Made by a program: the position numbers and the translations under genes. Below are positions 36,656 to 53,072 of a DNA stretch of 64,000 bases, in pieces. The DNA comes from Kiritimatiellia bacterium. Its GTDB lineage: Bacteria > Verrucomicrobiota > Kiritimatiellia > RFP12 > UBA1067. Numbering within the stretch: position 1 is the first letter of the stretch; each line of letters begins with the position of its first letter. The notes beneath the pieces are model-generated. The model was not told the DNA's origin and did no database searches. It worked only from the letters and a program-made list of their open reading frames with translations. The DNA lies in NCBI GenBank assembly GCA_045598585.1, contig JAZLMG010000027.1, positions 4,380-68,379 of the forward strand, written 5' to 3'.

Positions 36656-36684
36656 TTGATTATATCTGAGAAATATGATATAAT
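36656..36684 (+). promoter_or_regulatory. extended -10 promoter of the AAA_14/DUF4143 gene
   Basis: TTGATT, 17-nt spacer, TGATATAAT. Confidence 0.55.
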
Positions 36685-36706
36685 ATTTGCATATTTTGGA
36701 GGGTAT

Positions 36707-37975
36707 ATGAAACGTAGAGGTTATCGCGACAGATTGATTGATAAAAATGTGGAGCTTTATCTTTCCACATTCGGTGCAGTGTGCTTGGAGGGCCCGAAGT
36801 GGTGTGGAAAGACATGGACAAGTCTTGCTCATGTCAAAAGTGCATATATGATAGCAGATCCATCTGACAACTTTGCGAACCGTCAATTAGCTAAGTTAGA
36901 TGTTAACAAGGCCTTAGAAGGTGAAACTCCACATCTAATTGATGAATGGCAAGAGATTCCTGCGGTTTGGGATGCAGTAAGATTTCGTGTTGATGAGGAA
37001 GCAAAGACCGGGCAATTTATCTTAACAGGATCGTCAACTCCGCAGAACAAAGGCGTCATCCATTCAGGGACGGGTCGAATTGCGCGGCTTCCAATGCATC
37101 CAATGTCGTTATACGAGAGTGGTGATTCAACAGGATCAGTATCATTGGCTGCAGTTTGCCGCGGTGAATCGATTGGTGTCGAGGCAATGGAATGTCCCAG
37201 TGTTGAACGATTGACCTCGCTTGTTGTAAGAGGAGGGTGGCCAGCTGCGCTTGGGAAATCCGATGAACAGGCAATGTTGATTCCTCGAGAATATATCGAA
37301 AACGTAATAAATATCGATATTCATAAATTGGATAATATAGAGCGGGATTCGGTAAAGGTTCGTAAATGCCTTAGATCGCTGGCACGTAATGAGTCGACTT
37401 CCGCAACAACAGCAACTATTCGGAATGATATTGCTGAAGTCGATGATTCTACGCTTAGCATCAATACTGTCGTCAATTATCTCGATGCCTTCAAGAGACT
37501 GTTCTTGACGCATGATACGGAGCCTTTTTCCACTTTCCTTCGCTCCCCTACGCGGATTAAGCAGCAAGCGAAGCGCCGCTTCTGCGATCCTTCAATAGCT
37601 GCCGCGTTACTCGGAGCGACGCCGGCGATGCTAATGCGAGACTTAAGGACATTTGGATTGTTGTTTGAATCTTTGGCTGTAAGAGATCTTGAAATCTATG
37701 GTGAATCTCTCGGCGCGAAAATTTATCATTATCAAGATTATGATAGCGATGAGTTTGATGCTGTTTTGCAGTTCCCGGATGCTTCCTGGTGTGCGTTTGA
37801 AGTGAAGTACAATCCTGAAGATATTGAGGAAGCTGCTAAGAACCTTATCGAAACCTCTAAAAAGTTTGTGCACAATCCTCCACGAGCGCTTTGTGTTATT
37901 GTCGGCAAACATGGCATCGCTCACCGTAGGGATGATGGAGTTTATGTACTTCCTTTAATGATGCTTCGTCCATAA
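36707..37975 (+). CDS. AAA_14-type ATPase with DUF4143 C-terminal domain
   Basis: ATG 36707 follows GGAGGG. Walker A GPKWCGKT, Walker B LIDEWQ, and C-terminal DUF4143-like FESLAVRDL…YHYQD…DAVL. Confidence 0.8.
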   Translation: MKRRGYRDRLIDKNVELYLSTFGAVCLEGPKWCGKTWTSLAHVKSAYMIADPSDNFANRQLAKLDVNKALEGETPHLIDEWQEIPAVWDAVRFRVDEEAKTGQFILTGSSTPQNKGVIHSGTGRIARLPMHPMSLYESGDSTGSVSLAAVCRGESIGVEAMECPSVERLTSLVVRGGWPAALGKSDEQAMLIPREYIENVINIDIHKLDNIERDSVKVRKCLRSLARNESTSATTATIRNDIAEVDDSTLSINTVVNYLDAFKRLFLTHDTEPFSTFLRSPTRIKQQAKRRFCDPSIAAALLGATPAMLMRDLRTFGLLFESLAVRDLEIYGESLGAKIYHYQDYDSDEFDAVLQFPDASWCAFEVKYNPEDIEEAAKNLIETSKKFVHNPPRALCVIVGKHGIAHRRDDGVYVLPLMMLRP

Positions 37976-38232: not shown

Positions 38233-38312
38233 CTGTGCTGAAGGCGGCAGCTTGGTCAGGGGTTTCTAACATCATTCCTCCCCGAAGCTGGGCTGCTCGC
38301 CTTCAGCACAGC
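38233..38312 (+). promoter_or_regulatory. long imperfect stem-loop in the ~130-nt 5' UTR of the giant gene
   Basis: CTGTGCTGAAGGCG (38233-) pairs with CGCCTTCAGCACAG (-38312), GCAGC with GCTGC, and GGGG with CCCC. TTTCTAACA occurs in the apical loop and again at 38328-38336 just before the SD. Confidence 0.5.
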
Positions 38313-38348
38313 TGCCGTATCGTACGATTTCTAACAAAGGAAAATAAG

Positions 38349-41300: not shown

Positions 41301-44300
41301 ATTTCCGGCAATGGTCAGATTGCCGCCGATGAGTCGCTCTTTACGGATGGCTGCTATATCAAGGCGCTTGTCGAGGCGCAGAGCGCTCTCACGATTGCGG
41401 ATACCATTACGTTCGATCAGACAATGAAGTCTGGTTTTGTTGGAGCGCTTTACAAGACAGCAACAACGATTGAGCTTCGTGCGCAGAATAAGGAAGTTAT
41501 CTCCATTAACCTTGCCGGCGGTAAGAACACGGCGGAGACTTCCGAAGCCGCGAACTTGGTGACGGACGCCAATACCTATTATGGTCTCGCGCCGGTTCCG
41601 GGTGATAAGTGGAATAATATTTCCGGTCGTTGGCAGACGGGAAACAAGACCGTTACGCTTAATTCGGCTACCGCGTATGATGGCATGACGACGGCTCAGC
41701 GCGATACGATGAGCTTGAGTGCGACGGCGCAAAATACTTGGAATGCTGATAGTATTGCAAATCCGTTCCTTCGCGGCTATCTTGACGATAGCGGCGGCGT
41801 TGAAGTCTCGGTTACGGGTATCCCTTATTCGAAATACGATGTCATTGTTTATGTAACATCGGATGATGCACGTTATAGACTTGCGCCGATTACCGTGAAC
41901 AAAGTCAAGTATACCTATATGAACGGGGAAGCCGTCGTTGATACCGGTACGACGGATTGGGGCGTTGGACTTCAGGCGACGCCGGCTTTCGGCAAGAATG
42001 CGATGATTATTCGCAACCAGAGCCTGCAGACCTTGTCAATCAAGGCCGAGCGTCATACGAATGCGGGTCGTGGTACGCTTTGCGCGATACAGGTTATCAA
42101 CATGGGCGGCGAGGTGCTGACCCAGCGCACCTATGCTTCGACGATTACGACAGAAATGACCGCAGCGAATCTCTCGGAGCTTCAGTGCACCGGCTCGGGT
42201 TCGACGATTGTTGGCGGTGAGCTCACTCAGGTTACGCTGACGCTTGAAGGCGAAGCGACTGATCCCGAATTCGTTTTGACGATGGACGATCCGACGATCA
42301 AGACGGAATTCATCAAGATTATCGGCTCGCGTCCGATTAAGATTGCCTCTTCCGCGGCGATGGAAGGTGTTGTTTTGGATCTTTCCGAAACGTCGGGCAA
42401 TGTGACGCTTGCTCAGTCGGCTAAGAAGGTGACGGTTGGCGAACACGCGCGCCTTGTTCTTGCCGATGGTGTCTCGGTTGAGGCGCTCACGAATAACGGT
42501 GGTACGATTCGCTTCGAATCTGACCTTTCGTCCGGTACGACGCCGAACAATGGCGCGGGTACTTACGAATATAAGAATGCGAAGATTACCGGCTTCGTCA
42601 ATGGCAGCGCGAAAATCCATGTACTTGATGGTGATACGCTTAACGTGACGGCGCGTACGGCTCCTTCGCTCGAAATTGAGAATGGCGCGACGGTGACGAT
42701 CGGTGAAGCCGTTGGCAGCTTGTGGTATGGCGATGGTACGACCTTTGTTCAGAAGGGTGGCACGGTCTCATTGCCAATTAACGGTACGGGAACCTCCGGC
42801 ACAGGTAATGGCCTCTTGCTCGGCTATCAGAATGGCGGCATCACTCAGATGTCGGTTTCGGGCGGCTCGTTCACGATTGCGAATTCGTCTCTCAACTTCT
42901 ATCTCTGCTCGTCGATGACGGTTTCGGGTACCGGACACGTCAAAGCGAAGGGTGTTTATAAGAGCGGTAATGCCGCGACAGTCACGGTTTCCGATAACGG
43001 TATCTTCGAAATCGGTTCGCTCGGTTGGTCTGATATTTCTCTTAATATGAACGGCGGCACGTTTAAGGCGTTCGAGACGGCGACGATGTCAGCGGCGATG
43101 ACGATCCGTGATGCGACGACGATAGATGTCCCCGATGGCGTCACGCTTACGATTACGGGCGCGATTTCGGGTAGCTCGAACATCACGAAGACGGGTGCGG
43201 GCACGCTCATCATCACCGACTCGCTAGAAGGTTATACGGGTACGATTACGGCAACGGCCGGCCGCATCTCGGCGTGTGACTACTCGAAGGTCGCGACTTC
43301 CGATGTGGGTAAAATTCTCGTCGTGGAGTCGATTCCCGAATATGCCTCGGGCCACTTCACGGTTCCGACGGAGCTTGCGACGGTTGACTTCGATGTTCTT
43401 CGTCCGACAGGTACGATTGTGACCAAGGCGGAAGTTCTCGCCGATAAGACGGCGAAGATCTCGGGCGTTGCAACGAGCTTCGACGTGACCTATACCAATA
43501 CGATTAACTTTGCGTACAAGGCGAATTCTTCATGGTCCTCGGCTACGGATGCCAATGCAAAATCGTACAATAACACGCTCAATGACAAGTCCACGGGTCT
43601 TGAAATTCATAATCAGCCGCATATTGAGAATATTGCGTCAACGTTTTATGATGCAACCGATCAATTGTCGTTTGCGATTGTCGGTACTATGCCGGCGGGT
43701 CAGGATACGATTTTTGCGCACTTTGGACATTCTCAATCCGGTAAGTCCGGCCTTATGATCATTACCGGATCTAAGGAAGATGAGGTCGTCGTAGCGTTCA
43801 ACCATGGAAATCAAGTTACGCCGATTGCGAAGATGGTAGTTCCGAATTCGGCGACCAAACGTCATGCGTATGTCATCACCAAGGATGACAATCGCGATGC
43901 CGATACGACGACCTTTACGATTTATCTCGATGGAATAAAGTGGAAGACCCATGTTGAAACACCGAGATTTATGATTAGCGGCAATATTCAAATCGGTGGT
44001 GATGTTTGGGGCCTAATTCGAAATACCCCAAGTATCACAAATCCTGCGAATAACTATACGATTGCTACTTCTCAAAATGATGGTATCGTAAACTGTGTTC
44101 GTGGATATAACCGAATTATCTCCGCAGCGGAAATTGCTCAGTATTCCGATGAGAGCGAATTTCCTTATGTTTCGCCGAATGGAACATATACTCGTAATCC
44201 TACCGAGAATGGTAGCTGGGTTAGCGAGGGTGCGTGGACGAGCGGAGATGAGACGGTTGAGAAGCCCTCGGTTAAGGGTAATGTCGTCGTGACCGGTACG

Positions 44301-47300
44301 CACGCTGAAAACGCCGAAGCGACCGAGAAGACGATTACGGTTAATCTCACCGATGAAGTTCAGTACGAAAAGCTCACGCTCTCGGGTGATCCGATGCGCT
44401 TCGTCAACGGCGGCAACGATGCAAAGCCCGTTAAGTCGGTCTGCACGGTTGTCGGCACGACGGTTACGCTTTCGCAGAATGCGATCGACCTCAAGGCCGG
44501 CCCGACGATCATTCTCGATACGGGCAAGCTCGTCTTCGACTTCTCTTCGCTTACCGAGCAGATCGTCGCTGCCAACCCGATCGATCAGCAGGTTACAGGC
44601 GATATCGAAGAAGATGAGAACATCGGCACTGAAAGCGCGAAGATTGTCGTCGTTGGCCCGGAGAATCCCGGCCGTCTCGACATTCGTTTGAGCTACGTCA
44701 ACAACTGCTATCATGTCGTTGCGGCATTGAAGCCGGTCTATCTCAACAGCGATAATACGTTGCAGCTTGCTGACGGAACGACGGTCTCTTCGCTCTACGA
44801 GAACGAGAAGGTTTATGTCTCCTCGGTTGGCTTTGATCAAACGACCCGCTGGCGCGTCAACCTGAATAATAACACGCTCAGCGGACATACGGTCGTCATC
44901 GACTATCCGAATGGTGGTTCGAATCCGGGTATCAGCGTCCAAAGCGATATCTTGGATAATCTCAACATTGAGATTGCGGACGGTTCGATTATGTACATGC
45001 AGTCGGGCTATAAGGCGACCAATGCGACGATTACCGGCAAGGGCACCTTTAAGCTCACACAGCCGTTGACGGTTGACGGCGCCTTGATGATCTCCGCGGC
45101 AACTGTTACCGTCGAAGAATCGGGTAAGTTCAAGTTGAATACCAACGGCTCGGTTACCGTTCCTTCTGAACTTGGCGAGGGTCTTATTGAAAGCAATGTT
45201 TCGGGCATGCAGGTCAAGAAGGTGACCAACGAAGGCGAGACGACGACCTACACTTACTCGCTCTTCACGCCGGCGGCTTCTATCACGATTGACGGTGAGA
45301 CGACGTATTATTATCCGACTCTTGCCGATGCGATTTCCGATGCCTCGGCGGATGGTCTTACGGTGACGCTTGAGGGTGATGTGACGCTGGACGCCGCAGT
45401 AACGGTTCCGGTTGGGGTTACCCTCGATATCGGTTCGCATACGATCAGCGGTAGTCAGGTTAATGTCTATGGCGCTATCGCCGGTAATGGTACGATCGGC
45501 ACTTTGGTGATGGTTCGTAATTCGACGATCATTATGCCCGAGGAGGGCGTGCTCAAGGTGAGCTACATCGGTAAGTTCGATATAAAGCTCAATATCGCCA
45601 ATGCTGCGACCTCGCCGCTTACCTATCTCGAAGTTGCGAACATCTATGTTGATGGCACGAAGGCGTATGCGCCGTCATTCATCTCCTTCGTCGATGATGG
45701 AGTCGAATCCGTTGGCGTGGTCGGTCTTGACCAGCGCGAATCGGATGAGGTCTATCTCCTCCAGGCGGCAATCGCCGTCGCCGGCGTTTCGGTTTCGGTA
45801 GGGGGAGTTGACTATACCTATGGTTACATGACTGTCAATGAGGCAGTAGAGGCGGCAGTTGAGCAGGGTGGCTCCTATGCCAATGTCGAGGTCTACGACG
45901 AGGACGCGGAACTTCCTGAGGGCTTCATGGTCGTCTCGGGTCATTTGGCTCCGATTGTCGCCAAGATCGGCACGACTCCGTATCCAACGCTCCCCGGCGC
46001 GATTGCTGCGGCAGAAGAGACCGCTTCGGCGCAGACGCCTGTGACGGTGACGCTCGCGCGCAACGTGACGCTTCAGGATGCTTTGAATATTCCCGCCAAT
46101 GTGACGGTTGATGTGAACGGCTTCACGTTCACGGGCTCGGTTCAGGGTGCGGGTAAGATCAAGTTCGCCGGCTTCGCGCCGATTAAGGATGCGACGACGC
46201 TCAAGACCTCGCTTCAGGATTCCGAACATTGGACGGGTACGCTTTTGATTACTCAGCCGACTTCGGGCCAGATTGGTGCGAGTGATAACACTGTCGATAC
46301 GGCGGCCAATGGCTATCGTACGCTTCTTAATAACTACGGCAACATCAATTCGAAGATTGAGTTCGTTGATTGCACGGGTGATGGTGATATCAACTATATC
46401 GGACTTTCGCACAATGGCGATTCTGATCCTGTTGTTATCAAGCCCGAAATTGTCATTACCGGTAATGTGAAACTAAATAACGGATATTCGCATAGCAACA
46501 GCTATCCGAATTACTACACCGTTATTCGTAAGCTTTCCGGTACGGGTGCAATCAGTGCAACGCACTCCTCGCAGCTCTATTACATCGTTGACGGCAGCGA
46601 GTTCGCGGGCTCCATCTCGACGACAACGAAGAAGTTCATCTTCGGTGAGCGTGAGTCGACGGATGGTGTTCCGGCAGATGGCATTATCGCCGTTAAAATC
46701 GGTAAGTCCGTAACGATCGCGTCTGATAAGACTTGGTCTGCGACATCGATCGTTGTTAACGGTACGCTTACGAAGTCGAATGGTGCGACTTTGACCGGTA
46801 GCAATAATAACAATGGTAAGGTTGCCGGCTCCGGCGAAATCATCGTCGTCGGTTCGACCACGGCCGCCGGTATCAGCGGACATGGTATTCGCGGGCTTAC
46901 CGAAACGAATTGGACGGGTACGCTTACCATTAAGGATTGGAATGGTGCTGCTAATGCCGGTTCGGCAGATTTCGGCAATCTCGGCAATGCCAATTCGACT
47001 GTTCGCTTCGATGGCTATAACGGTTATCTCTATACGGGAACCTATAACCAGATTAAGGCGTATGACATTGCCGCGGGCGGCTTGACCTTGATTGGTCAGT
47101 ACTCGAACGGTAATCCGATCTTCCAGGGCAACTTGACCGGATCGGGTCCGATTACGGTGAATATGACGGGTGGACGTTTGATTAAGTTCGTCGGCGATCA
47201 CTCCGCATATACGGGAACGATTACTGTTGCGAATACTGCGTGCGTTGCGTTGGTTGATTCGGCTGACGCGCCTGTCCAGTACGAAGCCGGCAAGGTCATC

Positions 47301-47840
47301 TACGGTTCCGGATCCTCTCAGAAGATTCCTGAGATTCCTGAAGATGCGACTGTGACGATTGCACCCGGATCAAACGCGACGGTGACGTTCCCCGAAGAAG
47401 CGACTGCCGAGGAGAAGGCGGCAATTGCTGACCAGATCGTCGTCAAGTACGGCGAGACTGTTCTCAATCCTGCCGAATGCACGAAGTATGTCGAAGTCAC
47501 GATCAATCAGGAATCCGGTAAGGTCGAGCTGACGACGACGGAGGCCGCCAAGCCGGCTGCGACGGAGATCGCGATGTCGACGCCGACGGAAGGCGAAGGT
47601 GAGGAAGCGACTGACAAGGTTCAGTTCACGATCACCAACCCGATCCCGGGTCTCTTCTACGAAATCGTCTCCGGCGATAGCTTCGATGAGCACGGTGCTC
47701 TCGTTGTTGACGAAGACGCTGAGAAGGGTACCTCTCAAGCGACGACTTCGGCCGAAGCGAAGACGGTCTCGATCCCGATGACCTTCACCGGCGATAAGAA
47801 GGTGAAGTACTACAAGGTCAGCGTCAAGGCAACGAAGTAA
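38349..47840 (+). CDS. giant secreted surface protein (3,163 aa): LamG/ConA-like lectin domains + PATR-like/beta-helix repeats + small conserved C-terminal tail
   Basis: ATG 38349 follows AAGGAAAATAAG, with signal peptide MMKKIMKTMLSFAALMLCGGAWA|AA. LamG-like segments lie at about 38420-39140, 40525-41150 (LHLDASSL…WNDLSGKN…LIFN) and 43594-44150. PATR-like motifs are TKTGAGTLIITDSLEGYTGTITATAGRI (~43180-43270) and LTGSGPITVNMTGGRLIKFVGDHSAYTGTITVAN (~47130-47235). An internal duplication covers ~39315-39435 and ~40240-40360 (DGTVTVEMHGVD / DGVLTVEMHVQD). I recognise no beta-barrel, LPXTG or PEP-CTERM. Confidence 0.85.
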   Translation: MMKKIMKTMLSFAALMLCGGAWAAAIYKPIAVWDGNFADLTKGGVTLANVGESANPIVTSNGESYIKIADDATKGVFLNWDDLYNVTLANGGFSGREVTVIVAYSDMPTPGTNAKDAIFTLTSQATTTSNASSDWLGVMANTSGQTSAMVGSNSTWTHTSENPKGVFDFANNEQGIRYLAFSYKSSSTEVLPTGCQLFQRADDGTWTKVYGSWGLKTSTADIRGCSIGGPRNVTYAGALQGLKIHKIAVFNEILTDANLAGYRFPSDVNVLTHNKALTSDYVATGWYVSSVDELTAYNYTGVMAGGYVTDGTPAYGYFPTKHSDGTVTVEMHGVDNEAKGVLVEMKVEDGEVKIKGIKAAYWSAKNQIGNRLWQAANNSQITTGNGTFASGATGNGYGILSLTATPSYHVLNASYKNFNQAGYGSTYTYKFNLRATPSYADGTKVLVKRVGIACEGANDDLPAKVRINGIASTSRIGPEYESTFGSASSTIVYYNFDNGVELTVGTDADEFVYLNADDTVSTSIRHRLVEKIARSYSNLSVITIYNNGTEVTNYSPICDVVAERIAINPDNDATFTGTLSHSTWSVIGKVAEGDTINDVALKYGITAQLGGSSINRGTPLDAVDCYSQVHTDGVLTVEMHVQDGDNKKNVLVGFKVEGGLLMAKWLKGSYKGTTVNDRQTTYAEGGTISVISGFTSYDNYEVTKLVVTKADLLNTSATKPSVIATSNNALRLHLDASSLANFTLSNGEVTQWNDLSGKNYNATPASAKVGNADVTRNGYIEVVNGVPAFQMGPTGSGVDLAFNRFTGIKTVFWVMDIKQEQAAFFLGDVGYQQYDFHRGANGVYASQNKPFKNATCVRCDGVQVNPASDVAPTGLHVYSAQLATAANANRLSQDRSENGCNGGRAISELLIFNTELTNDQVAEVNKYLMKKWTGYKERTATISADTNWSEIEWSGDEDTDNIVIAFEDNAKLTFDSSVQCNSMTISGNGQIAADESLFTDGCYIKALVEAQSALTIADTITFDQTMKSGFVGALYKTATTIELRAQNKEVISINLAGGKNTAETSEAANLVTDANTYYGLAPVPGDKWNNISGRWQTGNKTVTLNSATAYDGMTTAQRDTMSLSATAQNTWNADSIANPFLRGYLDDSGGVEVSVTGIPYSKYDVIVYVTSDDARYRLAPITVNKVKYTYMNGEAVVDTGTTDWGVGLQATPAFGKNAMIIRNQSLQTLSIKAERHTNAGRGTLCAIQVINMGGEVLTQRTYASTITTEMTAANLSELQCTGSGSTIVGGELTQVTLTLEGEATDPEFVLTMDDPTIKTEFIKIIGSRPIKIASSAAMEGVVLDLSETSGNVTLAQSAKKVTVGEHARLVLADGVSVEALTNNGGTIRFESDLSSGTTPNNGAGTYEYKNAKITGFVNGSAKIHVLDGDTLNVTARTAPSLEIENGATVTIGEAVGSLWYGDGTTFVQKGGTVSLPINGTGTSGTGNGLLLGYQNGGITQMSVSGGSFTIANSSLNFYLCSSMTVSGTGHVKAKGVYKSGNAATVTVSDNGIFEIGSLGWSDISLNMNGGTFKAFETATMSAAMTIRDATTIDVPDGVTLTITGAISGSSNITKTGAGTLIITDSLEGYTGTITATAGRISACDYSKVATSDVGKILVVESIPEYASGHFTVPTELATVDFDVLRPTGTIVTKAEVLADKTAKISGVATSFDVTYTNTINFAYKANSSWSSATDANAKSYNNTLNDKSTGLEIHNQPHIENIASTFYDATDQLSFAIVGTMPAGQDTIFAHFGHSQSGKSGLMIITGSKEDEVVVAFNHGNQVTPIAKMVVPNSATKRHAYVITKDDNRDADTTTFTIYLDGIKWKTHVETPRFMISGNIQIGGDVWGLIRNTPSITNPANNYTIATSQNDGIVNCVRGYNRIISAAEIAQYSDESEFPYVSPNGTYTRNPTENGSWVSEGAWTSGDETVEKPSVKGNVVVTGTHAENAEATEKTITVNLTDEVQYEKLTLSGDPMRFVNGGNDAKPVKSVCTVVGTTVTLSQNAIDLKAGPTIILDTGKLVFDFSSLTEQIVAANPIDQQVTGDIEEDENIGTESAKIVVVGPENPGRLDIRLSYVNNCYHVVAALKPVYLNSDNTLQLADGTTVSSLYENEKVYVSSVGFDQTTRWRVNLNNNTLSGHTVVIDYPNGGSNPGISVQSDILDNLNIEIADGSIMYMQSGYKATNATITGKGTFKLTQPLTVDGALMISAATVTVEESGKFKLNTNGSVTVPSELGEGLIESNVSGMQVKKVTNEGETTTYTYSLFTPAASITIDGETTYYYPTLADAISDASADGLTVTLEGDVTLDAAVTVPVGVTLDIGSHTISGSQVNVYGAIAGNGTIGTLVMVRNSTIIMPEEGVLKVSYIGKFDIKLNIANAATSPLTYLEVANIYVDGTKAYAPSFISFVDDGVESVGVVGLDQRESDEVYLLQAAIAVAGVSVSVGGVDYTYGYMTVNEAVEAAVEQGGSYANVEVYDEDAELPEGFMVVSGHLAPIVAKIGTTPYPTLPGAIAAAEETASAQTPVTVTLARNVTLQDALNIPANVTVDVNGFTFTGSVQGAGKIKFAGFAPIKDATTLKTSLQDSEHWTGTLLITQPTSGQIGASDNTVDTAANGYRTLLNNYGNINSKIEFVDCTGDGDINYIGLSHNGDSDPVVIKPEIVITGNVKLNNGYSHSNSYPNYYTVIRKLSGTGAISATHSSQLYYIVDGSEFAGSISTTTKKFIFGERESTDGVPADGIIAVKIGKSVTIASDKTWSATSIVVNGTLTKSNGATLTGSNNNNGKVAGSGEIIVVGSTTAAGISGHGIRGLTETNWTGTLTIKDWNGAANAGSADFGNLGNANSTVRFDGYNGYLYTGTYNQIKAYDIAAGGLTLIGQYSNGNPIFQGNLTGSGPITVNMTGGRLIKFVGDHSAYTGTITVANTACVALVDSADAPVQYEAGKVIYGSGSSQKIPEIPEDATVTIAPGSNATVTFPEEATAEEKAAIADQIVVKYGETVLNPAECTKYVEVTINQESGKVELTTTEAAKPAATEIAMSTPTEGEGEEATDKVQFTITNPIPGLFYEIVSGDSFDEHGALVVDEDAEKGTSQATTSAEAKTVSIPMTFTGDKKVKYYKVSVKATK

Positions 47841-47883
47841 GCGAACTATTCTATCAGATATATTAGTTCGATTTACCAACAGC

Positions 47884-47915
47884 AAACGGCTTCGAAAGGA
47901 GCCGTTTGTTATTTT
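47884..47915 (+). terminator. rho-independent terminator of the giant gene
   Basis: AAACGGCT-tcgaaagg-AGCCGTTT followed by GTTATTTT. Confidence 0.8.
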
Positions 47916-47922
47916 AAGGGGC

Positions 47923-47952
47923 TTGATTTGAGAGAGAGGATTTTGATATAAT
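47923..47952 (+). promoter_or_regulatory. cassette promoter 1 (GGGGCTTGAT…TGATATAAT)
   Basis: TTGATT, 18-nt spacer, TGATATAAT. ATG 47961 is 8 nt after the -10. Confidence 0.6.
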
Positions 47953-47960
47953 AGCGTAGC

Positions 47961-48893
47961 ATGAATCCTTTAAGAAATAGCAATATTAACTACTGCCAAG
48001 GGTGGTTCTTCGTTACTATCCAAGTGGCGATGAACAAATCGGTTTTTGGTGTTGTTTCCGATAAGAGATTAATTCTTAATGAGTTAGGAAATGCGGTTAA
48101 AGAGAATCTAAGCCGACTTGGAAATATATTCCCGGAATTATATGTTGATACCTTTGTAATTATGCCGAACCATCTTCACGCTATTTTCAAGATAGATAGT
48201 AAAAGCGAGTCGCGGCATCTGTCGTATTTTATAGGACGATTCAAGTCTTTCACAGCGAATTTGTATCATAGAATGGTAAGAGAAGGTGTTTGTATTGATA
48301 TTGGGGCTTCGCTTTGGCAGACTAATTATTACGATAATTTGATAACCGAACATAAGGAGCTGGAAGCCATCAGAGAATATATAAGGAGAAATCCCGAGAG
48401 ATGGGAGGATGACCGTTTTGGCCCGGTTACGACATATTCAAAGGGAAACCTGAAGCTGTTAAATGAGTCTTTGGTGGCATTTGTCGCGTCAGATACTAAA
48501 GATAATTGGCAAGAGGATGTGCCGCATTTAAGAGAGGTGAGAGAGGTTTCAGGACGGAGCCCTATTTCAAAAGAAGCTCCCTTAATATCCACTTTCTCTA
48601 GTTTTGAGGAAAAAGGAGCTTTGTTAAAAAGAATAAATGATAGGTTGCCTTTTATATGGGTAGATCCGGCAGGAATTAAGCCGAATCTTCGTCCTGATAT
48701 TGAATCGGCGATTCTTGAAGGATGGGGATTGGTGATTTCTCCGGTTGAAAGCGGGACGGGACTCAATAAACAACGGGCGATCTGGTGTAATAGATGGATT
48801 ATTAAGGTAGCTAAACGAATTTATGTTGGAACGATAAAGAAGGGTGGTACTCTTGATACATTGTTGACGCACGGAGGCGTCAACCTACGATAA
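47961..48893 (+). CDS. HUH Y1 transposase (IS200-like/REP-associated RAYT, COG1943-type) fused to a DprA-like (SLOG-fold) C-terminal domain
   Basis: 310 aa. The N-terminal ~160 aa carry the HUH motif (MPNHLHAIF), LWQTNYYDNLI and the catalytic-Tyr motif (EYIRRNPERW). The C-terminal ~150 aa resemble DprA at motif level: GNLKLLNESLVAFVAS (compare GNxxLL…vaIVGSR) and GLVISPVESGTGLNKQRAIWCNRWIIKVAKRIYVGTIKKGGTLDT (compare liSE.p.g…F..RNRiI.gls…vvEa..kSGsl.T). Confidence 0.6.
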   Translation: MNPLRNSNINYCQGWFFVTIQVAMNKSVFGVVSDKRLILNELGNAVKENLSRLGNIFPELYVDTFVIMPNHLHAIFKIDSKSESRHLSYFIGRFKSFTANLYHRMVREGVCIDIGASLWQTNYYDNLITEHKELEAIREYIRRNPERWEDDRFGPVTTYSKGNLKLLNESLVAFVASDTKDNWQEDVPHLREVREVSGRSPISKEAPLISTFSSFEEKGALLKRINDRLPFIWVDPAGIKPNLRPDIESAILEGWGLVISPVESGTGLNKQRAIWCNRWIIKVAKRIYVGTIKKGGTLDTLLTHGGVNLR

Positions 48894-48940
48894 CATATCG
48901 TGGTGCTCGGCCTCTGTGCCGAATTATGTAATCTTCCGCG

Positions 48941-48995
48941 CGAGGGTGTGAATAGAGGCGAGGAGTGATCTTCGCCTCTTTCTTCGTCTTTCCCG
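48941..48995 (+). repeat. 55-nt hairpin element, copy A (full length)
   Basis: CGAGGGTGTGAATAGAGGCGAGGAGTGATCTTCGCCTCTTTCTTCGTCTTTCCCG, inserted after TCCGCG. The flanks match the empty site at 52227-52263. Confidence 0.85.
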
Positions 48996-49015
48996 GCACT
49001 TTGGCGGAATGGGGC

Positions 49016-49045
49016 TTGATTTTCCCAAGGGGAATATGATATAAT
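49016..49045 (+). promoter_or_regulatory. cassette promoter 2
   Basis: GGGGCTTGATT, 18-nt spacer, TGATATAAT. Confidence 0.6.
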
Positions 49046-49147
49046 ATAAGCGATCTCCCGAAAGGTGGGATCATCTGGATGCGGAGGAAAGTCTTCGCGT
49101 TGGTGACGGGAAGTAATTCTCGTCGCCTTCTCATTTTAGCGGCAGGC

Positions 49148-49837
49148 ATGGCAGAGAAAATATTGAGTATATTTGTGGATGAATCGGGGCGCTTTCAGTA
49201 TCCCGATTCCGATTCTCGTTTCTACATTTTGGGTCTTGTATTACACGATCAATCTGACGCAATAGATAAATACGTTGCAGATCTTGAGCGGTCTGAAGAT
49301 GAGGTTGGACTTGAAGGGCATTGTTTTCATGCCGGACCTCTTATCCGCAAGGAGAAGGGGTATGAAATCATGAGTCGTAAATGGCGTGGAAGGATATTCT
49401 CTCGCATGATGGCATTTGCTCAGAAGGTTCCTTTTCGCTATCATTGTCTGAGCGTTGATAAGAAACTTATTGATGATGTTGGCCAGATTGTTGAACGCTT
49501 AGATCGACAACTGGTTGAGTTCATTTCATTGCATCGAATCGACTTGTTCAATATCGAGACTATCAAGATATACTACGATTGTGGTCAGTCTCCGGTTACA
49601 AATCTTCTTCATAAGACATTCGTTGAAGAACTCGGGAAACGGGTGGAGTTTGCGCAAGGAGTACAACCGTCAAGCTATCGGCTTTTCCAGTTGGCAGATC
49701 TCGTATGTACAGTTCATCTAATCGAGCGGCGTCTGGAAGAAGGGGATAGGATGACGATGTCAGAGGTTCGGTTCTTTGGCGGTCCTCGCGACTTCAAACG
49801 AAATGTTTTGAAAAAGCTCAAGGCCAAGGAAGTTTAA
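49148..49837 (+). CDS. DUF3800-family protein
   Basis: N-terminal ILSIFVDESG and C-terminal YRLFQLADLVC are DUF3800 hallmarks. An alternative upstream ATG at 49079 is conserved in the truncated copy. Confidence 0.7.
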   Translation: MAEKILSIFVDESGRFQYPDSDSRFYILGLVLHDQSDAIDKYVADLERSEDEVGLEGHCFHAGPLIRKEKGYEIMSRKWRGRIFSRMMAFAQKVPFRYHCLSVDKKLIDDVGQIVERLDRQLVEFISLHRIDLFNIETIKIYYDCGQSPVTNLLHKTFVEELGKRVEFAQGVQPSSYRLFQLADLVCTVHLIERRLEEGDRMTMSEVRFFGGPRDFKRNVLKKLKAKEV

Positions 49838-49889
49838 TCGAAGTAATCCTGTAAATCCTGTAAATCCTGTCTAAAACAGGACAAGCTAA

Positions 49890-49931
49890 AGAGGCGAGGC
49901 GTGAGTCTCGCCTCTTTCTTCGTCTCCCGCG
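49890..49931 (+). repeat. hairpin element, copy B (hairpin + 3' part; different 5' flank)
   Basis: AGAGGCGAG-gcgtgagt-CTCGCCTCT TTCTTCGTCTCCCGCG, preceded by the TCCTGT-ctaaa-ACAGGA hairpin (49865-49881) and AAATCCTGT tandem 9-mers. Confidence 0.8.
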
Positions 49932-49951
49932 GCGCATTGGCGGGAGGGGGC

Positions 49952-49981
49952 TTGACGAGGTTATCATAATTATGATATAAT
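49952..49981 (+). promoter_or_regulatory. cassette promoter 3
   Basis: GGGGCTTGACG, 18-nt spacer, TGATATAAT. The SD AAGGAGA precedes ATG 50006. Confidence 0.6.
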
Positions 49982-50005
49982 TCTTATCGGTTTAAGGAGA
50001 AGATT

Positions 50006-50302
50006 ATGCCGCCTATGATTAAAGACTCGGATATTCGTCCGATTTCCGACTTGCGCAATAAGTTCGCCGAAATTGCGGATTATGTGCAAGATGGTAATGC
50101 CGTTATCTTTACGCGTAATGGCTATGGTTGCATGGTGACGATCAGTTACGATTCGTTCAAGCGTCTAGGAGATCCTGTGCTTGCTGAATTGCGAGAGGCG
50201 GATCGAAAGTGCGAGCAGGACCCTCGTCATTATACGAAAGAAGAGTCTTTAGCCATTTTGAAGGAGCGCGCTAATGCTCGGCGAAACCGCGTACAGGCTT
50301 GA
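50006..50302 (+). CDS. Phd/YefM-family type II antitoxin
   Basis: 98 aa. IRPISDLRNKFAEIADYV…VIFTRNGYGCMVTISYDSFKRL is typical of Phd/YefM. Confidence 0.8.
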   Translation: MPPMIKDSDIRPISDLRNKFAEIADYVQDGNAVIFTRNGYGCMVTISYDSFKRLGDPVLAELREADRKCEQDPRHYTKEESLAILKERANARRNRVQA

Positions 50303-50621
50303 TATTCGTCCGACATTTATCGACGAGCTTGATCGCGCGGTAGAGTATATCGAGCGCAAATTCAAAAATCCTATTGCGGCAGACAATCTTATTAACGATG
50401 TCTACGCGGCGATAGACGAACGACTTTTTGCGCCGGAATCATACGAACCTTGCTATCGTCCACCGGATGTAACCAAGCCGTATTATCGTATTGATGTGCG
50501 AAACTATTCGATATATTACGTGGTGATTGGTTCGGTAATGGAAGTCCGGTGGTTCAGATATTCAAAGAGCGTTCAGCCTCTTTCCGGATATCCGATCTAT
50601 GAGTCCGGAAGTGTCTGGTAA
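50274..50621 (+). CDS. RelE/ParE-family type II toxin
   Basis: 115 aa overlapping the antitoxin, with a ParE-like core (YRLDIRPTFIDELDRAVEYI…YYRIDVRNYSIYYVVIGSVMEVRWFRY). An atypical C-terminal tail runs into the relic at 50605-50667. Confidence 0.72.
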   Translation: MLGETAYRLDIRPTFIDELDRAVEYIERKFKNPIAADNLINDVYAAIDERLFAPESYEPCYRPPDVTKPYYRIDVRNYSIYYVVIGSVMEVRWFRYSKSVQPLSGYPIYESGSVW

Positions 50622-50667
50622 CGCGAAGGTTAAGTACTTCCGCGTCCGCGTCAAGGCGACCAAGTAA
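50605..50667 (+). pseudogene. relic of a giant-protein 3' end (…PEVSGNAKVKYFRVRVKATK*)
   Basis: Aligns with the giant C-terminus TFTGDKKVKYYKVSVKATK* at both protein and DNA level (GTCAAGGCGACCAAGTAA vs GTCAAGGCAACGAAGTAA). It is out of frame with the parE end. Confidence 0.65.
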
Positions 50668-50709
50668 TCTTGGAAATCCTGTCAATCCTGTCTAAAACAG
50701 GCAAGTTAA

Positions 50710-50752
50710 AGAGGCGAGGAGTGATCTTCGCCTCTTTCTTCGTCTTCCCGCG
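50710..50752 (+). repeat. hairpin element, copy C (hairpin + 3' part)
   Basis: AGAGGCGAGGAGTGATCTTCGCCTCT TTCTTCGTCTTCCCGCG, preceded by the CCTGT-ctaaa-ACAGG hairpin (50687-50701). Confidence 0.8.
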
Positions 50753-50772
50753 GCGCATTGGCGGGAGGGGGC

Positions 50773-50802
50773 TTGATTTTCCCAAGGGTAATATGATATA
50801 AT
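50773..50802 (+). promoter_or_regulatory. cassette promoter 4 (near-duplicate of promoter 2)
   Basis: GGGGCTTGATTTTCCCAAGGGTAATATGATATAAT vs GGGGCTTGATTTTCCCAAGGGGAATATGATATAAT at 49011-49045. Confidence 0.6.
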
Positions 50803-50859
50803 ATAGGCGATCTTTCGAATGAAGGATCATCTGGATGCGGGGAAAGTGCTCCGCCTTAA

Positions 50860-51069
50860 GTGACGGGTTCGCCTGTCACTTTCGCATTTAATAGAATGAC
50901 GAGAAGGTCGCTTAGTGTATTTGCAGATTTAATCTGTACAATTCGCTTTATAGAGGAAGAACTTAACGTTGGCGATGGGATGACATCTTCCGAAGATAAG
51001 TTCTTTGGCGGTCCGAAGGCATTCCGTCATAATGTATTGCGTTATGTTAAGTCCAAGGAAATTCGTTAA
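50860..51069 (+). pseudogene. truncated DUF3800 paralog (promoter, leader and last ~50 codons only)
   Basis: LSVFADLICTIRFIEEELNVGDGMTSSEDKFFGGPKAFRHNVLRYVKSKE aligns with YRLFQLADLVCTVHLIERRLEEGDRMTMSEVRFFGGPRDFKRNVLKKLKAKE of the intact copy. The N-terminal DESG part is absent. Confidence 0.75.
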
Positions 51070-51080
51070 GGGCTTTGTTT

Positions 51081-51167
51081 TCAGCTAAGGCGGACTCGAT
51101 CCCGAAGACCTTCGGCGAAGGTAAGAAGGTCAAGTTCTTCAAGGTCAGCGTCAAGGCGACCCGATGA
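51081..51167 (+). pseudogene. relic of a giant-protein 3' end (SAKADSIPKTFGEGKKVKFFKVSVKATR*)
   Basis: Aligns with SAEAKTVSIPMTFTGDKKVKYYKVSVKATK* (47748-47840), with strong DNA identity (TCGATCCCGAaGACCTTC…AAGAAGGT…AAGGTCAGCGTCAAGGC). Confidence 0.75.
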
Positions 51168-51238
51168 TGCGAGCATCCCCGTGGCAGGCGAAGTAATCCG
51201 CGGCAGAAATGCCCAAGATGTAACAAGAACAACAACAG

Positions 51239-51268
51239 ACGGCTTCGCAAGGAGCCGTTTGTTATTTT
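51239..51268 (+). terminator. second copy of the giant-gene terminator
   Basis: ACGGCTtcgcaaggAGCCGTTTGTTATTTT vs ACGGCTtcgaaaggAGCCGTTTGTTATTTT at 47886-47915. Confidence 0.75.
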
Positions 51269-51338
51269 CCATGTTTGTGCTTGGCACATCTGTGGAGAAT
51301 GAAAATCGTATCTTCCGCTATACTTTGGCGTAAGGGGC

Positions 51339-51368
51339 TTGACAAAGGTGTATCCTAAATGATACAAT
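51339..51368 (+). promoter_or_regulatory. cassette promoter 5
   Basis: GGGGCTTGACA, 18-nt spacer, TGATACAAT. ATG 51375 is 6 nt after the -10, so the transcript is probably leaderless. Confidence 0.6.
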
Positions 51369-51374
51369 ATTGAC

Positions 51375-51662
51375 ATGACAATTCGAGAGACAGAGCTATA
51401 TAAGAAGTGGTTTGCAAAGTTGAAAGATACGGTAGCTAAGGCGCGTATCTTGGTGCGACTTCGTAGAATGGCGCTTGGTAATTTCGGTGAGTATAAGGAT
51501 TTGGGTGATAATGTTTCGGAGTTGAAGTTTCATTTCGGTCCTGGATATCGGATTTACTACACAGAGAGAGATGGCGAGATTGTAATATTATTGGCGGGAG
51601 GCGACAAGTCTTCGCAGACTAAAGATATTGCTAAGGCAAAGGAGCTTGCCGCAAACTTGTAA
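51375..51662 (+). CDS. addiction-module killer protein (HigB-like, RelE/ParE superfamily)
   Basis: 95 aa. GNFGEYKDLGDNVSELKFHFGPGYRIYYTERDGEIVILLAGGDKSSQTKDIAKAK is the canonical killer-protein signature. Confidence 0.85.
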   Translation: MTIRETELYKKWFAKLKDTVAKARILVRLRRMALGNFGEYKDLGDNVSELKFHFGPGYRIYYTERDGEIVILLAGGDKSSQTKDIAKAKELAANL

Positions 51663-51672
51663 GGAGGGTGTT

Positions 51673-51957
51673 ATGAAAACTAAGACTACAATTTGGAAGA
51701 TTGAGAATCACCTTAAGACGAAAGAAGAGCGTGAGGCTTATCTTAACGCGGCGTTTGAGGATGGTGATGCGTCTGTTATTGCTGCGGCGCTCGGTGATAT
51801 TGCTCGAGTTGAAGGTATGAGTAAGGTTGCGAAGAAGTCCGGGCTTGGACGGGAAAGCCTTTACAAAGCTTTGTCGGCTGAAGGCAATCCTGCTCTTGGG
51901 ACGATTATTAAAGTTCTTAAAGCGTTTGATTTTAATCTTCGAGCGGCATGCTTTTAA
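51673..51957 (+). CDS. addiction-module antidote protein (HigA-like HTH)
   Basis: ATG 51673 follows AAGGAGGG. YLNAAFEDGD…GMSKVAKKSGLGRESLYKALSAEGNPALGTIIKVLKA. Confidence 0.85.
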   Translation: MKTKTTIWKIENHLKTKEEREAYLNAAFEDGDASVIAAALGDIARVEGMSKVAKKSGLGRESLYKALSAEGNPALGTIIKVLKAFDFNLRAACF

Positions 51958-51977
51958 CATAGCAAAGCTTCTCCGCG

Positions 51978-52033
51978 CGAGGGGGTAAATTGAGGCGAGG
52001 TGTGAGTCTCTCCTCTTTCTTCGTCTTTCCGCG
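51978..52033 (+). repeat. hairpin element, copy D (full length, degenerate stem)
   Basis: CGAGGGGGTAAATTGAGGCGAGGTGTGAGTCTCTCCTCTTTCTTCGTCTTTCCGCG, flanked by TCCGCG on the left. Confidence 0.8.
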
Positions 52034-52073
52034 GCGATTTTGGTTTGTTTATGCAGTTATTGTTTCGGAATAA

Positions 52074-52113
52074 TTCAGTATTGTTTCAGTACGGATTCAG
52101 TAACGATTCAGTA
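52074..52113. repeat. 4 x 11-bp tandem repeat (TTCAGTA core)
   Basis: TTCAGTA at 52074, 52085, 52096 and 52107, with an exact 11-bp period. Confidence 0.75.
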
Positions 52114-52258
52114 CTGTTGCGGTTTGTTTTTAAAAAGAGGGGACAGTCCCCAATTCGTGGACATTCGAAAGGCGATGCAAGCATTCGTGTTCCCATTCGT
52201 GCCTCGCGCCGGTAGGCGCCAACATCTAATCTTCCGCGGCACTTTGGCGGAATGGGGC

Positions 52259-52288
52259 TTGACAGGATGATATCATATATGATACAAT
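52259..52288 (+). promoter_or_regulatory. cassette promoter 6
   Basis: GGGGCTTGACA, 18-nt spacer, TGATACAAT. ATG 52296 is 7 nt after the -10. Confidence 0.6.
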
Positions 52289-52295
52289 ACATGCC

Positions 52296-52634
52296 ATGAA
52301 TTACGTGACTAAGAAGTATGAACGAGAGAATGGGGCAATTCCCTTCGACGAATGGATCTCGTCGCTTTCGCCGGTATTTCGTGCTCGAGTCTATGCTTAT
52401 CTCACGAGAGTTGAGCTTGGCAATTGGGGTAATGTCAAGTCAATCGAGGGCGAGGATTCGAAAGATCTATTTGAGTTGCGTATGTTCTTTGGCCCCGGAT
52501 ATCGCGCTTATTTCGGCAAAGATGGTGACAAATTGATATTGCTACTTTGCGGAGGCGACAAGAAGACGCAAAAGCGTGACATCAAAGAGGCGAAGATGTT
52601 GTGGAATGAATATCGAAAGAGGAAAGGAGAATGA
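52296..52634 (+). CDS. addiction-module killer protein (HigB-like), paralog 2
   Basis: 112 aa. GNWGNVKSIEGEDSKDLFELRMFFGPGYRAYFGKDGDKLILLLCGGDKKTQKRDIKEAK. Confidence 0.85.
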   Translation: MNYVTKKYERENGAIPFDEWISSLSPVFRARVYAYLTRVELGNWGNVKSIEGEDSKDLFELRMFFGPGYRAYFGKDGDKLILLLCGGDKKTQKRDIKEAKMLWNEYRKRKGE

Positions 52635-52635
52635 T

Positions 52636-52953
52636 ATGGCTTTGACGGTTGATTATCGTGAAGGAGTGTTAAAAGACATCCGGGAAAATCCTGAGGTGGC
52701 ACGCGAGTATTATCGCGAAGCGGTTAAGGCAACGATTAACGGAGAGACGGATGTCGCAAATTCGATGTTTCGCGACCTTGTAAATGCAGGTATCGGCTTT
52801 CAGCGACTTGCGGCCGAAACGGGAATCAGTGCGCCGAATCTTCATCGCGCACTATCTCCACGCGGCAATCCTACTATGAAGACATTTAGTAAGATAGCAG
52901 CTGCGGTCAGTTTGTATTTGGGTTTCCCCACCCCGATGGGAATATTCGGTTAA
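52636..52953 (+). CDS. addiction-module antidote protein (HTH), paralog 2
   Basis: ATG 52636 lies 2 nt after the toxin stop. FQRLAAETGISAPNLHRALSPRGNPTMKTFSKIAAA. Confidence 0.8.
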   Translation: MALTVDYREGVLKDIRENPEVAREYYREAVKATINGETDVANSMFRDLVNAGIGFQRLAAETGISAPNLHRALSPRGNPTMKTFSKIAAAVSLYLGFPTPMGIFG

Positions 52954-52980
52954 ACCAAGAACAAACATCCACCATCCGCG

Positions 52981-53035
52981 CGAGGGGGTAAATAGAGGCG
53001 AGGCGTGAGTCTCGCCTCTTTCTTCGTCTCCCGCG
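52981..53035 (+). repeat. 55-nt hairpin element, copy F (full length, best consensus)
   Basis: CGAGGGGGTAAATAGAGGCGAGGCGTGAGTCTCGCCTCTTTCTTCGTCTCCCGCG, flanked by TCCGCG on the left. It has a 9-bp stem and an 8-nt loop. Confidence 0.85.
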
Positions 53036-53037
53036 GT

Positions 53038-53066
53038 TTGACAAAGCTACTCGTTTTTAGTATACT
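53038..53066 (+). promoter_or_regulatory. promoter of the glycoside-hydrolase-like gene
   Basis: TTGACA, 17-nt spacer, TATACT. ATG 53073 is 6 nt after the -10. Confidence 0.55.
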
Positions 53067-53072
53067 ATTAGA

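Follow-up and report, generated by a model that had tools for sequence, protein, structure and literature searches.

How does a file of small genes, all facing one way and separated by stretches of DNA that resemble each other more than the genes do, come to be built where no recombinase domain is found? The question is raised by an island of ∼5.2 kb (47841–53072) in a 64,000-nt stretch of a Kiritimatiellia bacterium (GCA_045598585.1, contig JAZLMG010000027.1, positions 4,380–68,379 of the forward strand), referred to below as the window. All units of the island lie on the + strand, directly 3′ of a giant gene for a surface protein. A sequence-only reading of the locus had proposed that the first gene of the island, which encodes an HUH/Y1 nuclease fused to a DprA-like domain, captures cassettes by way of folded single-stranded DNA hairpins at the junctions. 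We come to a different answer, which we hold to be just on the probable side: the locus is a horizontally acquired, strain-variable toxin–antitoxin and defence island in the 3′ untranslated region (UTR) of the giant gene, reshuffled through homologous recombination between its junction repeats, and the HUH–DprA-like gene is one of its cassettes.

The gene order is as that reading had described it, namely the HUH–DprA-like gene, a DUF3800 gene, phd–parE, a DUF3800 fragment and two further toxin–antitoxin pairs (pairs 1 and 2; coordinates in Table 1). Family models identify the type II toxin–antitoxin modules as PhdYeFM/ParE once and TIGR02683/TIGR02684 twice, pair 1 scoring 125.9 and 105.3 bits with the latter two. 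The contig is 80.7 kb long, and proteins matching at 90% identity or above come from Kiritimatiellia MAGs. The GC content is 42–47% in the island against 52–57% in the flanks, which are housekeeping in character (HAD hydrolase, ABC transporter, response regulator, tuf and rplA–rplJ downstream).

Junction modules and cassettes

Three parts recur at the junctions. The core of a 55-nt hairpin element is present in five copies (48955, 49891, 50711, 51992 and 52995), all on the + strand and all within the island, where none is expected by chance; no copy was found in the remainder of the 64-kb window. Copies 2 and 3 consist of the 3′ part only. The TTCCGC-N9-GCGGAA inverted repeat (TTCCGCGGCNCNTTGGCGGRA) has four good copies (48989, 49925, 50746 and 52232) against 0.08 expected, and in four units it comes just ahead of the −35 box. 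The third part is a strong promoter-like site with an extended −10 (10–11 of 12 matches), found ahead of every unit. Its upstream portion, GGGGCTTGA, has six exact + strand copies in the island, each of them 18 nt ahead of TGATAYAAT, and one exact copy elsewhere in the 64 kb. The first point to note is that the promoters share only the −35 side and a consensus −10; the 18-nt spacers are cassette-specific and palindromic, as would be expected for antitoxin operators. The hairpin, the inverted repeat and the near-identical promoters that the sequence-only reading had listed as shared parts are all borne out by these counts.

The 55-nt element has the appearance of a Rho-independent terminator. 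All five copies lie on the coding strand, directly 3′ of a unit, with a G+C-rich stem and a T-rich run, and a terminator scan flags copies including those at 48954, 49896, 50708 and 52994. The element folds into a two-tier imperfect hairpin (z score down to −5.0), the inner stem of which is 97% paired in seven copies, five from the window and two from the related loci L024 and L026. Variation in this stem is mainly from G–C to G–U, and pairing is preserved on the + strand only. The copies in L024 and L025 carry CCTTTTTATTT after the stem, and that in L024 has a clean T tract, TTTTTATTT. Judged from these features, we infer that the hairpin behaves like an intrinsic terminator. It has no conserved foot of the GT[AG]G type, and the foot and loop of the REP-like hairpins described below are both absent. 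A pattern built on the hairpin (GAGGCGAG-N12-CCTCTTTCTTCGT) gave no true match in genome_contigs, metagenome_contigs or viral_contigs. Its sole matches, in a coding region of Prevotella, were no hairpin elements and were put down to chance; the viral contigs gave zero. Rfam returned no credible family for any junction.

Going by their sequences, the junction parts originate in surface-protein genes, at their 3′ ends: coding tail, stop codon, UTR and terminator. The segment 50625–50667 repeats the last 43 nt of a surface gene. A longer relic, 51083–51268, reproduces a tail with stop codon and UTR, followed by the terminator of the giant gene itself (Ter0), and it matches the intact tail, UTR and terminator of another gene in L023. 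The relics comprise 7–85 nt of the extreme tail. Homologous tails close other giant genes in L011, L012 and L023, and the Ter0 element also bounds cassettes in L022, L023 and L024.

Junctions and cargo differ markedly in their divergence. The junction modules are 85–93% identical, as against 51–63% for paralogous cargo; between the DUF3800 fragment and the full copy, the coding DNA is 62.5% identical and the upstream module 88–93%. Junction 3 combines segments of junctions 1 and 2 in a mosaic. Tandem duplication of whole cassettes was considered as the source of the repeats and rejected, because the cargo paralogs are far more diverged than the junctions.

Related strains, all compared through short metagenomic contigs (loci numbered L), carry the same cassettes in other arrangements. 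The differences in cassette content that the sequence-only reading had proposed to look for between strains are indeed present, in L022, L023, L024–L026 and L011. In L022 (85–86% nt identity), phd–parE is followed directly by pair 2 and then by a second HUH gene that also has a C-terminal domain (C-domain); its junctions consist of Ter0-type terminators plus GTGGGCGGTGGAG, with no 55-nt hairpin. In L024–L026 (91%), pair 2 stands behind a tail relic, Ter0 and the inverted repeat–promoter, which is the slot of pair 1 in the window, and behind it come the 55-nt hairpin and the flank found there after pair 1. In L011 (GCA_024405265.1) pair 2 comes after another giant gene and a tRNA, with the same inverted repeat–promoter. 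The copies of pair 2 in L011 and L022–L026, with their other neighbours, are 86–91% identical. Homologs of phd–parE (84–88% nt identity) occur in other contexts in L013–L022; in L013–L021 the gene ahead of them ends in FFKVVVEMP*, the terminator is another one and the promoter has diverged, and in L017 a relic of the tail of that gene is found 3′ of parE. In L022, L023 and L013–L016 another terminator takes the place of the 55-nt hairpin for the same cassettes. The varied order and settings across L011 and L013–L026 indicate that the cassettes are modular and their order variable, and that the junction type is specific to the array.

No clean empty site was obtained: in GCA_024405265.1 the genes upstream of the right-flank ortholog are entirely different. 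In the same assembly a tRNA lies directly upstream of this ortholog (L010 9888–9970) and one lies directly after the giant gene ahead of the pair-2 cassette (L011 9447–9520); the window has no tRNA at either matching place.

The HUH–DprA-like protein and its hairpins

The N-terminal half of the 310-aa protein matches Pfam Y1_Tnp with 35.7 bits (cutoff 23), and its best NCBIfam match is REP_Tyr_transpos (NF047646) with 54.5 bits, below the equivalog cutoff of 80. As the sequence-only reading had anticipated, the HUH and tyrosine residues are conserved: H71, H73, Y140 and N144 are invariant in 35 full-length homologs (46–90% identity), and Y140 aligns with the catalytic-Tyr region of ISDra2 TnpA. 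With HUH, Tyr and Asn all conserved, enzymatic activity is probable. An AlphaFold (AF2) model built on the homolog alignment has a pLDDT of 88.5. In Foldseek searches its first half matched IS200/IS605 TnpA and the Escherichia coli RAYT 4er8 (E ∼1e-6), and its second half matched ShosA (8zva; E 9e-4) and the DprA proteins of Helicobacter pylori (HpDprA, 5mll) and Streptococcus pneumoniae (SpDprA, 3uqz), both at E 4e-3 and 21–22% identity over 150 columns; these three second-half matches have a probability of 1.00.

Whilst the Foldseek matches uphold the proposed fusion at the level of fold, the corresponding check with hidden Markov models came out only in part: Y1_Tnp lies above its cutoff, but the DprA family PF02481, the sole family to appear with the window C-domain, scores 11.7 bits (E 0.15) against a cutoff of 29.6. 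With the homolog P0161 it reaches E 0.073, DUF4720 being equally weak (E 0.072). PADLOC gives only two marginal matches to the HUH protein; the C-domain reaches PsyrA at E 0.001. The C-domain thus resembles DprA and ShosA/PsyrA (Shosta/PsyrTA) in its Rossmann-type DprA fold, in the weak PsyrA match and in its defence-island setting, and differs from them in staying below family thresholds, in having no PRTase toxin partner, in its fusion to an HUH nuclease and in its rarity.

Among 1.84 billion representatives the C-domain forms 86 clusters (50% identity, E ≤ 1e-3). Full-length matches are ∼300–430 aa with the domain at the C-terminus, and four of the six matches that were scanned also contain Y1_Tnp. 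One representative, P0197 (518 aa), has the same rare domain fused to Sua5/YciO/YrdC and not to HUH. Exact look-ups of the HUH protein and of protein P0149 returned no record, and no description of a RAYT–DprA or HUH–SLOG fusion was found in the literature searched. The fusion is rare, and it brings together a single-stranded DNA hairpin nuclease and a likeness to a RecA loader.

The homologs sit in diverse settings. In L001 the gene is the last but two of an unknown operon upstream of rpsB–tsf, and in L003 and L012 it lies directly behind giant surface-protein genes. A 50%-identical homolog (L027 10001–10927, also L028 and L029) is inside a type III-B CRISPR Cmr operon, starting 15 nt past the last RAMP gene and overlapping a CARF/Card1-type gene by 4 nt, with cas1–cas2 downstream. 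A 46%-identical homolog (L030 and L031, 10001–10963) is found, co-oriented and tightly spaced, in a type I restriction–modification island with the order HsdM, HsdS, HD, KAP NTPase, homolog, 257 aa, RhuM, HsdR. PADLOC found no matches among the neighbours in L001, L003, L027 and L030, and there is no cassette array beside the homologs in L001, L003, L012 or L027–L031. That the fusion recurs in defence settings (a toxin–antitoxin island here, type III-B CRISPR and type I restriction–modification loci elsewhere) marks it as a possible case of domesticated Y1 transposases taking on a new role.

In four of the seven contexts (window, L012, L003 and L022) the gene lies directly behind a giant-gene tail or terminator, or a relic of one. 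At L003, where it follows a gene for 2417 aa, it lies between two direct copies, 84 nt long and 94% identical, of the giant-gene coding tail. The flanking regions concerned are 9848–9939 and 11035–11178; the left edge of the repeat is a REP-like hairpin, and three tandem hairpin copies come after the gene. The second gene in L022 (1406–2416, 336 aa) is 25% identical to that of the window. It stands behind a GTAA–UTR–Ter0–promoter segment that is also found ahead of the window gene, at 85% nt identity. Its 3′ coding end holds a GTAG-footed hairpin, and a giant-tail relic of 95% identity comes next.

Two REP-like hairpins surround the stop codon of the window gene (Table 1) and were missing from the listing in the sequence-only reading. 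They fold jointly as one long hairpin (z score −4.9). The close homologs in L012 (82% identity), L001/L002 (67%) and L003 (59%) have hairpins of the same design at their 3′ ends, with TATCGT[AG]G as the foot, CTCNGT as the loop and a stem that varies; with the window this makes four independent loci. Over nine units, 86% of the stem cells are paired and compensatory changes are seen at six of nine pairs. The covariation score of 0.69 compares with 0.09–0.28 in slid controls and 0.21 in shuffles. Within the 64-kb window and 211 kb of fetched loci, hairpins of this kind occur only beside the HUH–DprA-like gene family. None lies beside the toxin–antitoxin cassettes, and they are absent at the two distant homologs (L027–L029 and L030/L031).

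This arrangement recalls the REPtron, a class 2 RAYT/TnpA(REP) gene with flanking REP hairpins, for which Nunvar (2010), Ton-Hoang (2012) and Messing (2012; PDB 4er8) are reportedly the sources. The window gene shares with it the HUH and Tyr-x3-Asn motifs, REP_Tyr_transpos as best match, the 4er8 fold match, 5′ GT[AG]G-footed hairpins beside the gene in inverted pairs, and one copy per locus. It differs in the extra 160-aa DprA/ShosA-like C-terminal domain, in scoring below the RAYT equivalog cutoff, and in hairpins that overlap the stop codon, both being at the 3′ end of the gene and not one per side, with no dispersed copies in the 64 kb; more distant family members have no hairpins and lie inside defence operons. 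GT[AG]G-footed REPs flank tnpA in the small class 2 TnpA(REP) subclasses 2.7 and 2.8, and the REPtron arrangement is common to five class 2 subclasses (Quentin et al. 2018; PMC6006769). From this comparison, the REP-like hairpins, and not the 55-nt element, are likely to be the substrates of the HUH domain.

Assembly of the island

In the reading we favour, each module would be a self-contained unit of promoter, one or two genes and terminator. The 55-nt hairpin would act in the transcript as an intrinsic terminator, and the inverted repeat with GGGGCTTGA would be the upstream half of the next unit's promoter, the spacers carrying operator palindromes. In length and in similarity the junction modules meet the needs of ordinary RecA-dependent homologous recombination, which would keep the junctions alike whilst deleting, inserting and swapping cassettes. 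Crossovers in the conserved tails of paralogous surface genes would leave tail relics between cassettes, and junction modules and relics alike would be both product and substrate of recombination. The HUH–DprA-like gene would be one more cassette, RAYT-like and equipped with its own GT[AG]G-footed hairpin pair as a REPtron-like unit. If junction-module recombination does build the island, an integron-like variable array would be possible from terminator–promoter repeats without a dedicated integrase, which bears on how defence islands are assembled.

There is a partial precedent in rhs and cdiA genes, behind which displaced 3′ ends ('orphan' modules) are found. As in those systems, fragments from the 3′ end of a giant gene have accumulated behind it, which would fit repeated recombination within one conserved stretch of the gene. 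The island relics differ in being 7–85 nt of extreme tail and not toxin tips, and what lies between them is ordinary type II toxin–antitoxin pairs and other defence-island genes.

Several points weigh against this account. Homologous recombination alone explains neither how the first copy of the junction module came to lie beside unrelated cargo nor why sharing stops precisely at the −35 box. In the window copies, the T-rich run that follows the stem (TTTCTTCGTCT) is interrupted and weaker than in a textbook terminator. Both arrays of sufficient length (window and L022) have an HUH + C-domain gene, from two subfamilies, which may be more than coincidence. Finally, for the L003 gene at least, the REP-edged duplication suggests an event linked to the enzyme.

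One alternative is that the junction module, or its 50-nt hairpin part, is a non-autonomous mobile element (a MITE- or REP-like terminator) that inserted repeatedly. We consider this unlikely. The copies are indeed highly identical, sites with and without the hairpin can be paired (51972–52040 with 52232–52252, and the regions upstream in L011 and L024), and full copies are bounded on both sides by TCCGCG, which could be a target duplication or terminal inverted repeats. However, CCGCGG is palindromic, so direct and inverted repeats are indistinguishable. In addition, such an element would have zero copies outside the island in 64 kb and no true match in the three public collections, and two of its five copies would be the 3′ part only.

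That the junctions are alike through function, with a common regulator binding the inverted repeat by the extended −35 box and a DUF3800-associated non-coding RNA ending in the hairpin, is a reading of low probability. The placing of the inverted repeat just upstream of the −35 box in four units fits it, as does a diverged GGCGG-N3-5-GGGG-N-TTGAC before the same cassettes in L011, L022 and L023. DUF3800 genes are also known to be accompanied by diverse structured RNA motifs, several with terminator ends (PMC5737381). Yet the 88–93% identity extends over spacers and 5′ UTR as well, the junctions are mosaic, and no Rfam family was matched.

A more active part for the enzyme is likewise improbable, though some observations favour it. 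The protein might nick at its own REP-like hairpins, the DprA-like domain might load RecA, and the resulting strand might invade the tail or terminator of a surface gene, duplicating the tail and building the array. An ssDNA nuclease (acting on single-stranded DNA) and a RecA-loader likeness make a fitting domain pair, and both the location of four of the seven genes behind giant-gene ends and the tail duplication from the REP-like hairpin in L003 are as such a process would leave them. Tail relics flank other cassettes too, which might be read as the same process at work. Against it, the toxin–antitoxin cassettes have no adjoining REP-like hairpin, the distant homologs lie inside operons without such hairpins, and RecA loading by so diverged a domain (PF02481 E 0.07–0.15) is hypothetical. 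In a broader form, the fusion would be a new ssDNA recombination engine that inserts itself, and perhaps neighbouring cassettes, by homology at surface-gene tails and terminators, or alternatively a defence nuclease; we put little weight on this proposal. The engine would explain the tail duplications at the L003 gene and between the window cassettes and would be a means of assembling cassette arrays with no integrase; the defence alternative is raised because the fusion sits inside type III CRISPR and restriction–modification operons.

The model of the sequence-only reading, in which the HUH–DprA-like protein uses folded single-stranded 55-nt hairpins in the manner of attC sites to excise and capture cassettes, now seems very unlikely. 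In its favour are the conserved HUH, Tyr and Asn residues, the DprA-like C-domain, the two-tier imperfect fold of the hairpin, a strain-variable array and the HUH + C-domain gene in both judgeable arrays. Nevertheless, the proposed tie between enzyme, junction hairpin and cassettes is not supported. The family carries, at its own 3′ end, a conserved hairpin of another kind, and the 55-nt element has no GT[AG]G-type foot. Homologs in L001, L027–L029 and L030–L031 are single genes in other operons with no array, and the same cassettes occur with another terminator. The 55-nt hairpin is itself terminator-like, confined to unit 3′ ends on the coding strand and tolerant of G–U pairs, a variation that fits pairing in the transcript. 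Compared with IS200/IS605 and IS91/ISCR, the enzyme is similar in its HUH chemistry on single-stranded DNA and its hairpin recognition, as predicted here from sequence and model. ISCR elements are HUH transposons that capture neighbouring genes. Unlike these systems, the island lacks both tnpB and left and right element ends flanking the cassettes, and its enzyme is Y1 and not Y2 and is not multicopy.

A likeness to integrons had also been pointed out, together with its limits, and both stand. Like integron arrays and clusters of attC sites without an integrase (CALINs), the island is a one-orientation array of small, self-contained cassettes with toxin–antitoxin cargo, shared boundaries that are more alike than the cargo, and strain-variable content. 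In contrast to them, its boundaries are terminator plus promoter, gene 3′-end relics lie in between, and the units have their own promoters, those of integrons being mostly promoterless and served by a common one. No recombinase domain was found in the 32 window open reading frames (ORFs) scanned, all IntI-sized ones included, and no attC R″/R′ core pair (RYYYAAC ... GTTRRRY) in any of the seven junctions; over the whole island two such pairs were found against 1.05 expected. For all its co-oriented small cassettes, toxin–antitoxin cargo and homogeneous boundary repeats, a decayed integron or CALIN is scarcely credible and was rejected, there being no IntI-like protein among the ORFs scanned, no core pair at the junctions and a promoter for each unit.

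Feature coordinates and further observations

Table 1. Coordinates of the features of the island and its borders, numbered from the first nucleotide of the window
Feature	Coordinates	Strand	Details
Gene for 3201-aa surface protein	38235–47840	+	
Tail, 3′ coding end of the 3201-aa gene (...KKVKYYKVSVKATK*)	47756–47840	+	Template of downstream relics; repeat families D5, D6
Ter0, classical intrinsic terminator of giant gene	47877–47915	+	Repeat D10, I12; second copy 51230–51268
Promoter-like site before HUH gene, GGGGCTTGA-N18-TGATATAAT	47918–47953	+	Repeat D4
Gene for 310-aa HUH/Y1 (RAYT-like) nuclease with DprA/ShosA-like C-terminal domain	47961–48893	+	
REP-like hairpin: foot TATCGTAG, stem GTTGACGC, loop CTCCGT	48863–48892	−	Overlaps last codons and stop of HUH gene
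REP-like hairpin: foot TATCGTGG, stem TCGGC, loop CTCTGT	48896–48922	+	Head-to-head with hairpin 48863–48892
Junction 1	48935–49046	+	55-nt hairpin copy 1, 48935–48989; inverted repeat 48989–49009; promoter 49011–49046
DUF3800 gene	49079–49837 (ORF)	+	Likely start 49148; RNase HII-like fold
Junction 2	49838–49982	+	Relic GAAGTAA 49840–49846 (7 nt); AATCCTGT repeats and small hairpin 49847–49880; hairpin core copy 2, 49890–49925; inverted repeat 49925–49945; promoter 49947–49982; repeat D9
phd–parE toxin–antitoxin pair	50006–50621	+	phd 50006–50302; parE 50274–50621; PhdYeFM and ParE family matches
Junction 3	50625–50803	+	43-nt surface-gene tail relic 50625–50667; AATCCTGT repeats; hairpin core copy 3, 50710–50745; inverted repeat 50746–50766; promoter 50768–50803; repeats D2, D3, D5, D9
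Second, diverged DUF3800: 69-aa C-terminal fragment	50860–51069	+	54% identity to full copy over 48 aa
Junction 4	51083–51369	+	85-nt tail relic 51083–51167; relic stop and 3′ UTR 51189–51226; Ter0 copy 51230–51268; degenerate inverted repeat 51312–51333; promoter 51334–51369; repeats D6, D10, D12
Pair 1: HI1419-type RelE/ParE toxin; HI1420-type antidote	51375–51662; likely 51673–51957	+	
Junction 5	51972–52289	+	Hairpin copy 4, 51972–52026; half inverted repeat 52027–52040; 190-nt insert 52041–52231 with four ATTCAGTA; full inverted repeat 52232–52252; promoter 52254–52289; repeat D11
Pair 2: HI1419-type toxin; antidote	52296–52634; likely 52636–52953	+	
Right island end: hairpin copy 5 and half inverted repeat	52975–53036	+	Fold z score −5.0
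Native promoter TTGACA-N17-TATACT of 646-aa right-flank gene	53038–53066		3′ of hairpin copy 5

The structural model of the DUF3800 protein (49148–49837) has a pLDDT of 91.4, its closest structures are RNase HII, and D11 and E12 are among the invariant residues. The sequence-only reading had called the HUH protein the only DNA-processing enzyme present, but with its RNase HII-like fold the DUF3800 protein is nuclease-like too, so the HUH protein is not the sole one of that kind in the island. A hidden recombinase was rejected for DUF3800, the model being RNase HII-like and not transposase-like. Homologs of DUF3800 are very abundant on ∼1-kb metagenomic contigs.

In the 5′ leader of the DUF3800 gene, a terminator-like hairpin (49102–49127) lies between the promoter and the probable start at 49148, and this leader is 79–88% conserved ahead of the DUF3800 fragment (50824–50857). 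The stretches 49847–49880 and 50668–50701 each contain three AATCCTGTN repeats (period 9) and then a small hairpin, TCCTGTCTAAAACAGGA; they are UAA-rich, adjoin the DUF3800 genes and lie upstream of the terminator hairpin.

The 190-nt insert of junction 5 interrupts a copy of the inverted repeat. Its four ATTCAGTA are spaced ∼11 nt apart, and it contains a minus-strand terminator-like hairpin (52139–52151). At the matching position L026 has TTCCCCAA-type octamers of equal spacing.

Upstream of the giant gene lie further genes of low GC content, one for a STAND-like ATPase with a MarR-type C-terminus (32085–33254) and one for an AAA_14/DUF4143 ATPase (36653–37975) that matches the PADLOC candidate system PDC-S01 (E 9e-57). 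With these ATPase genes, the variable defence-type region reaches beyond the island.

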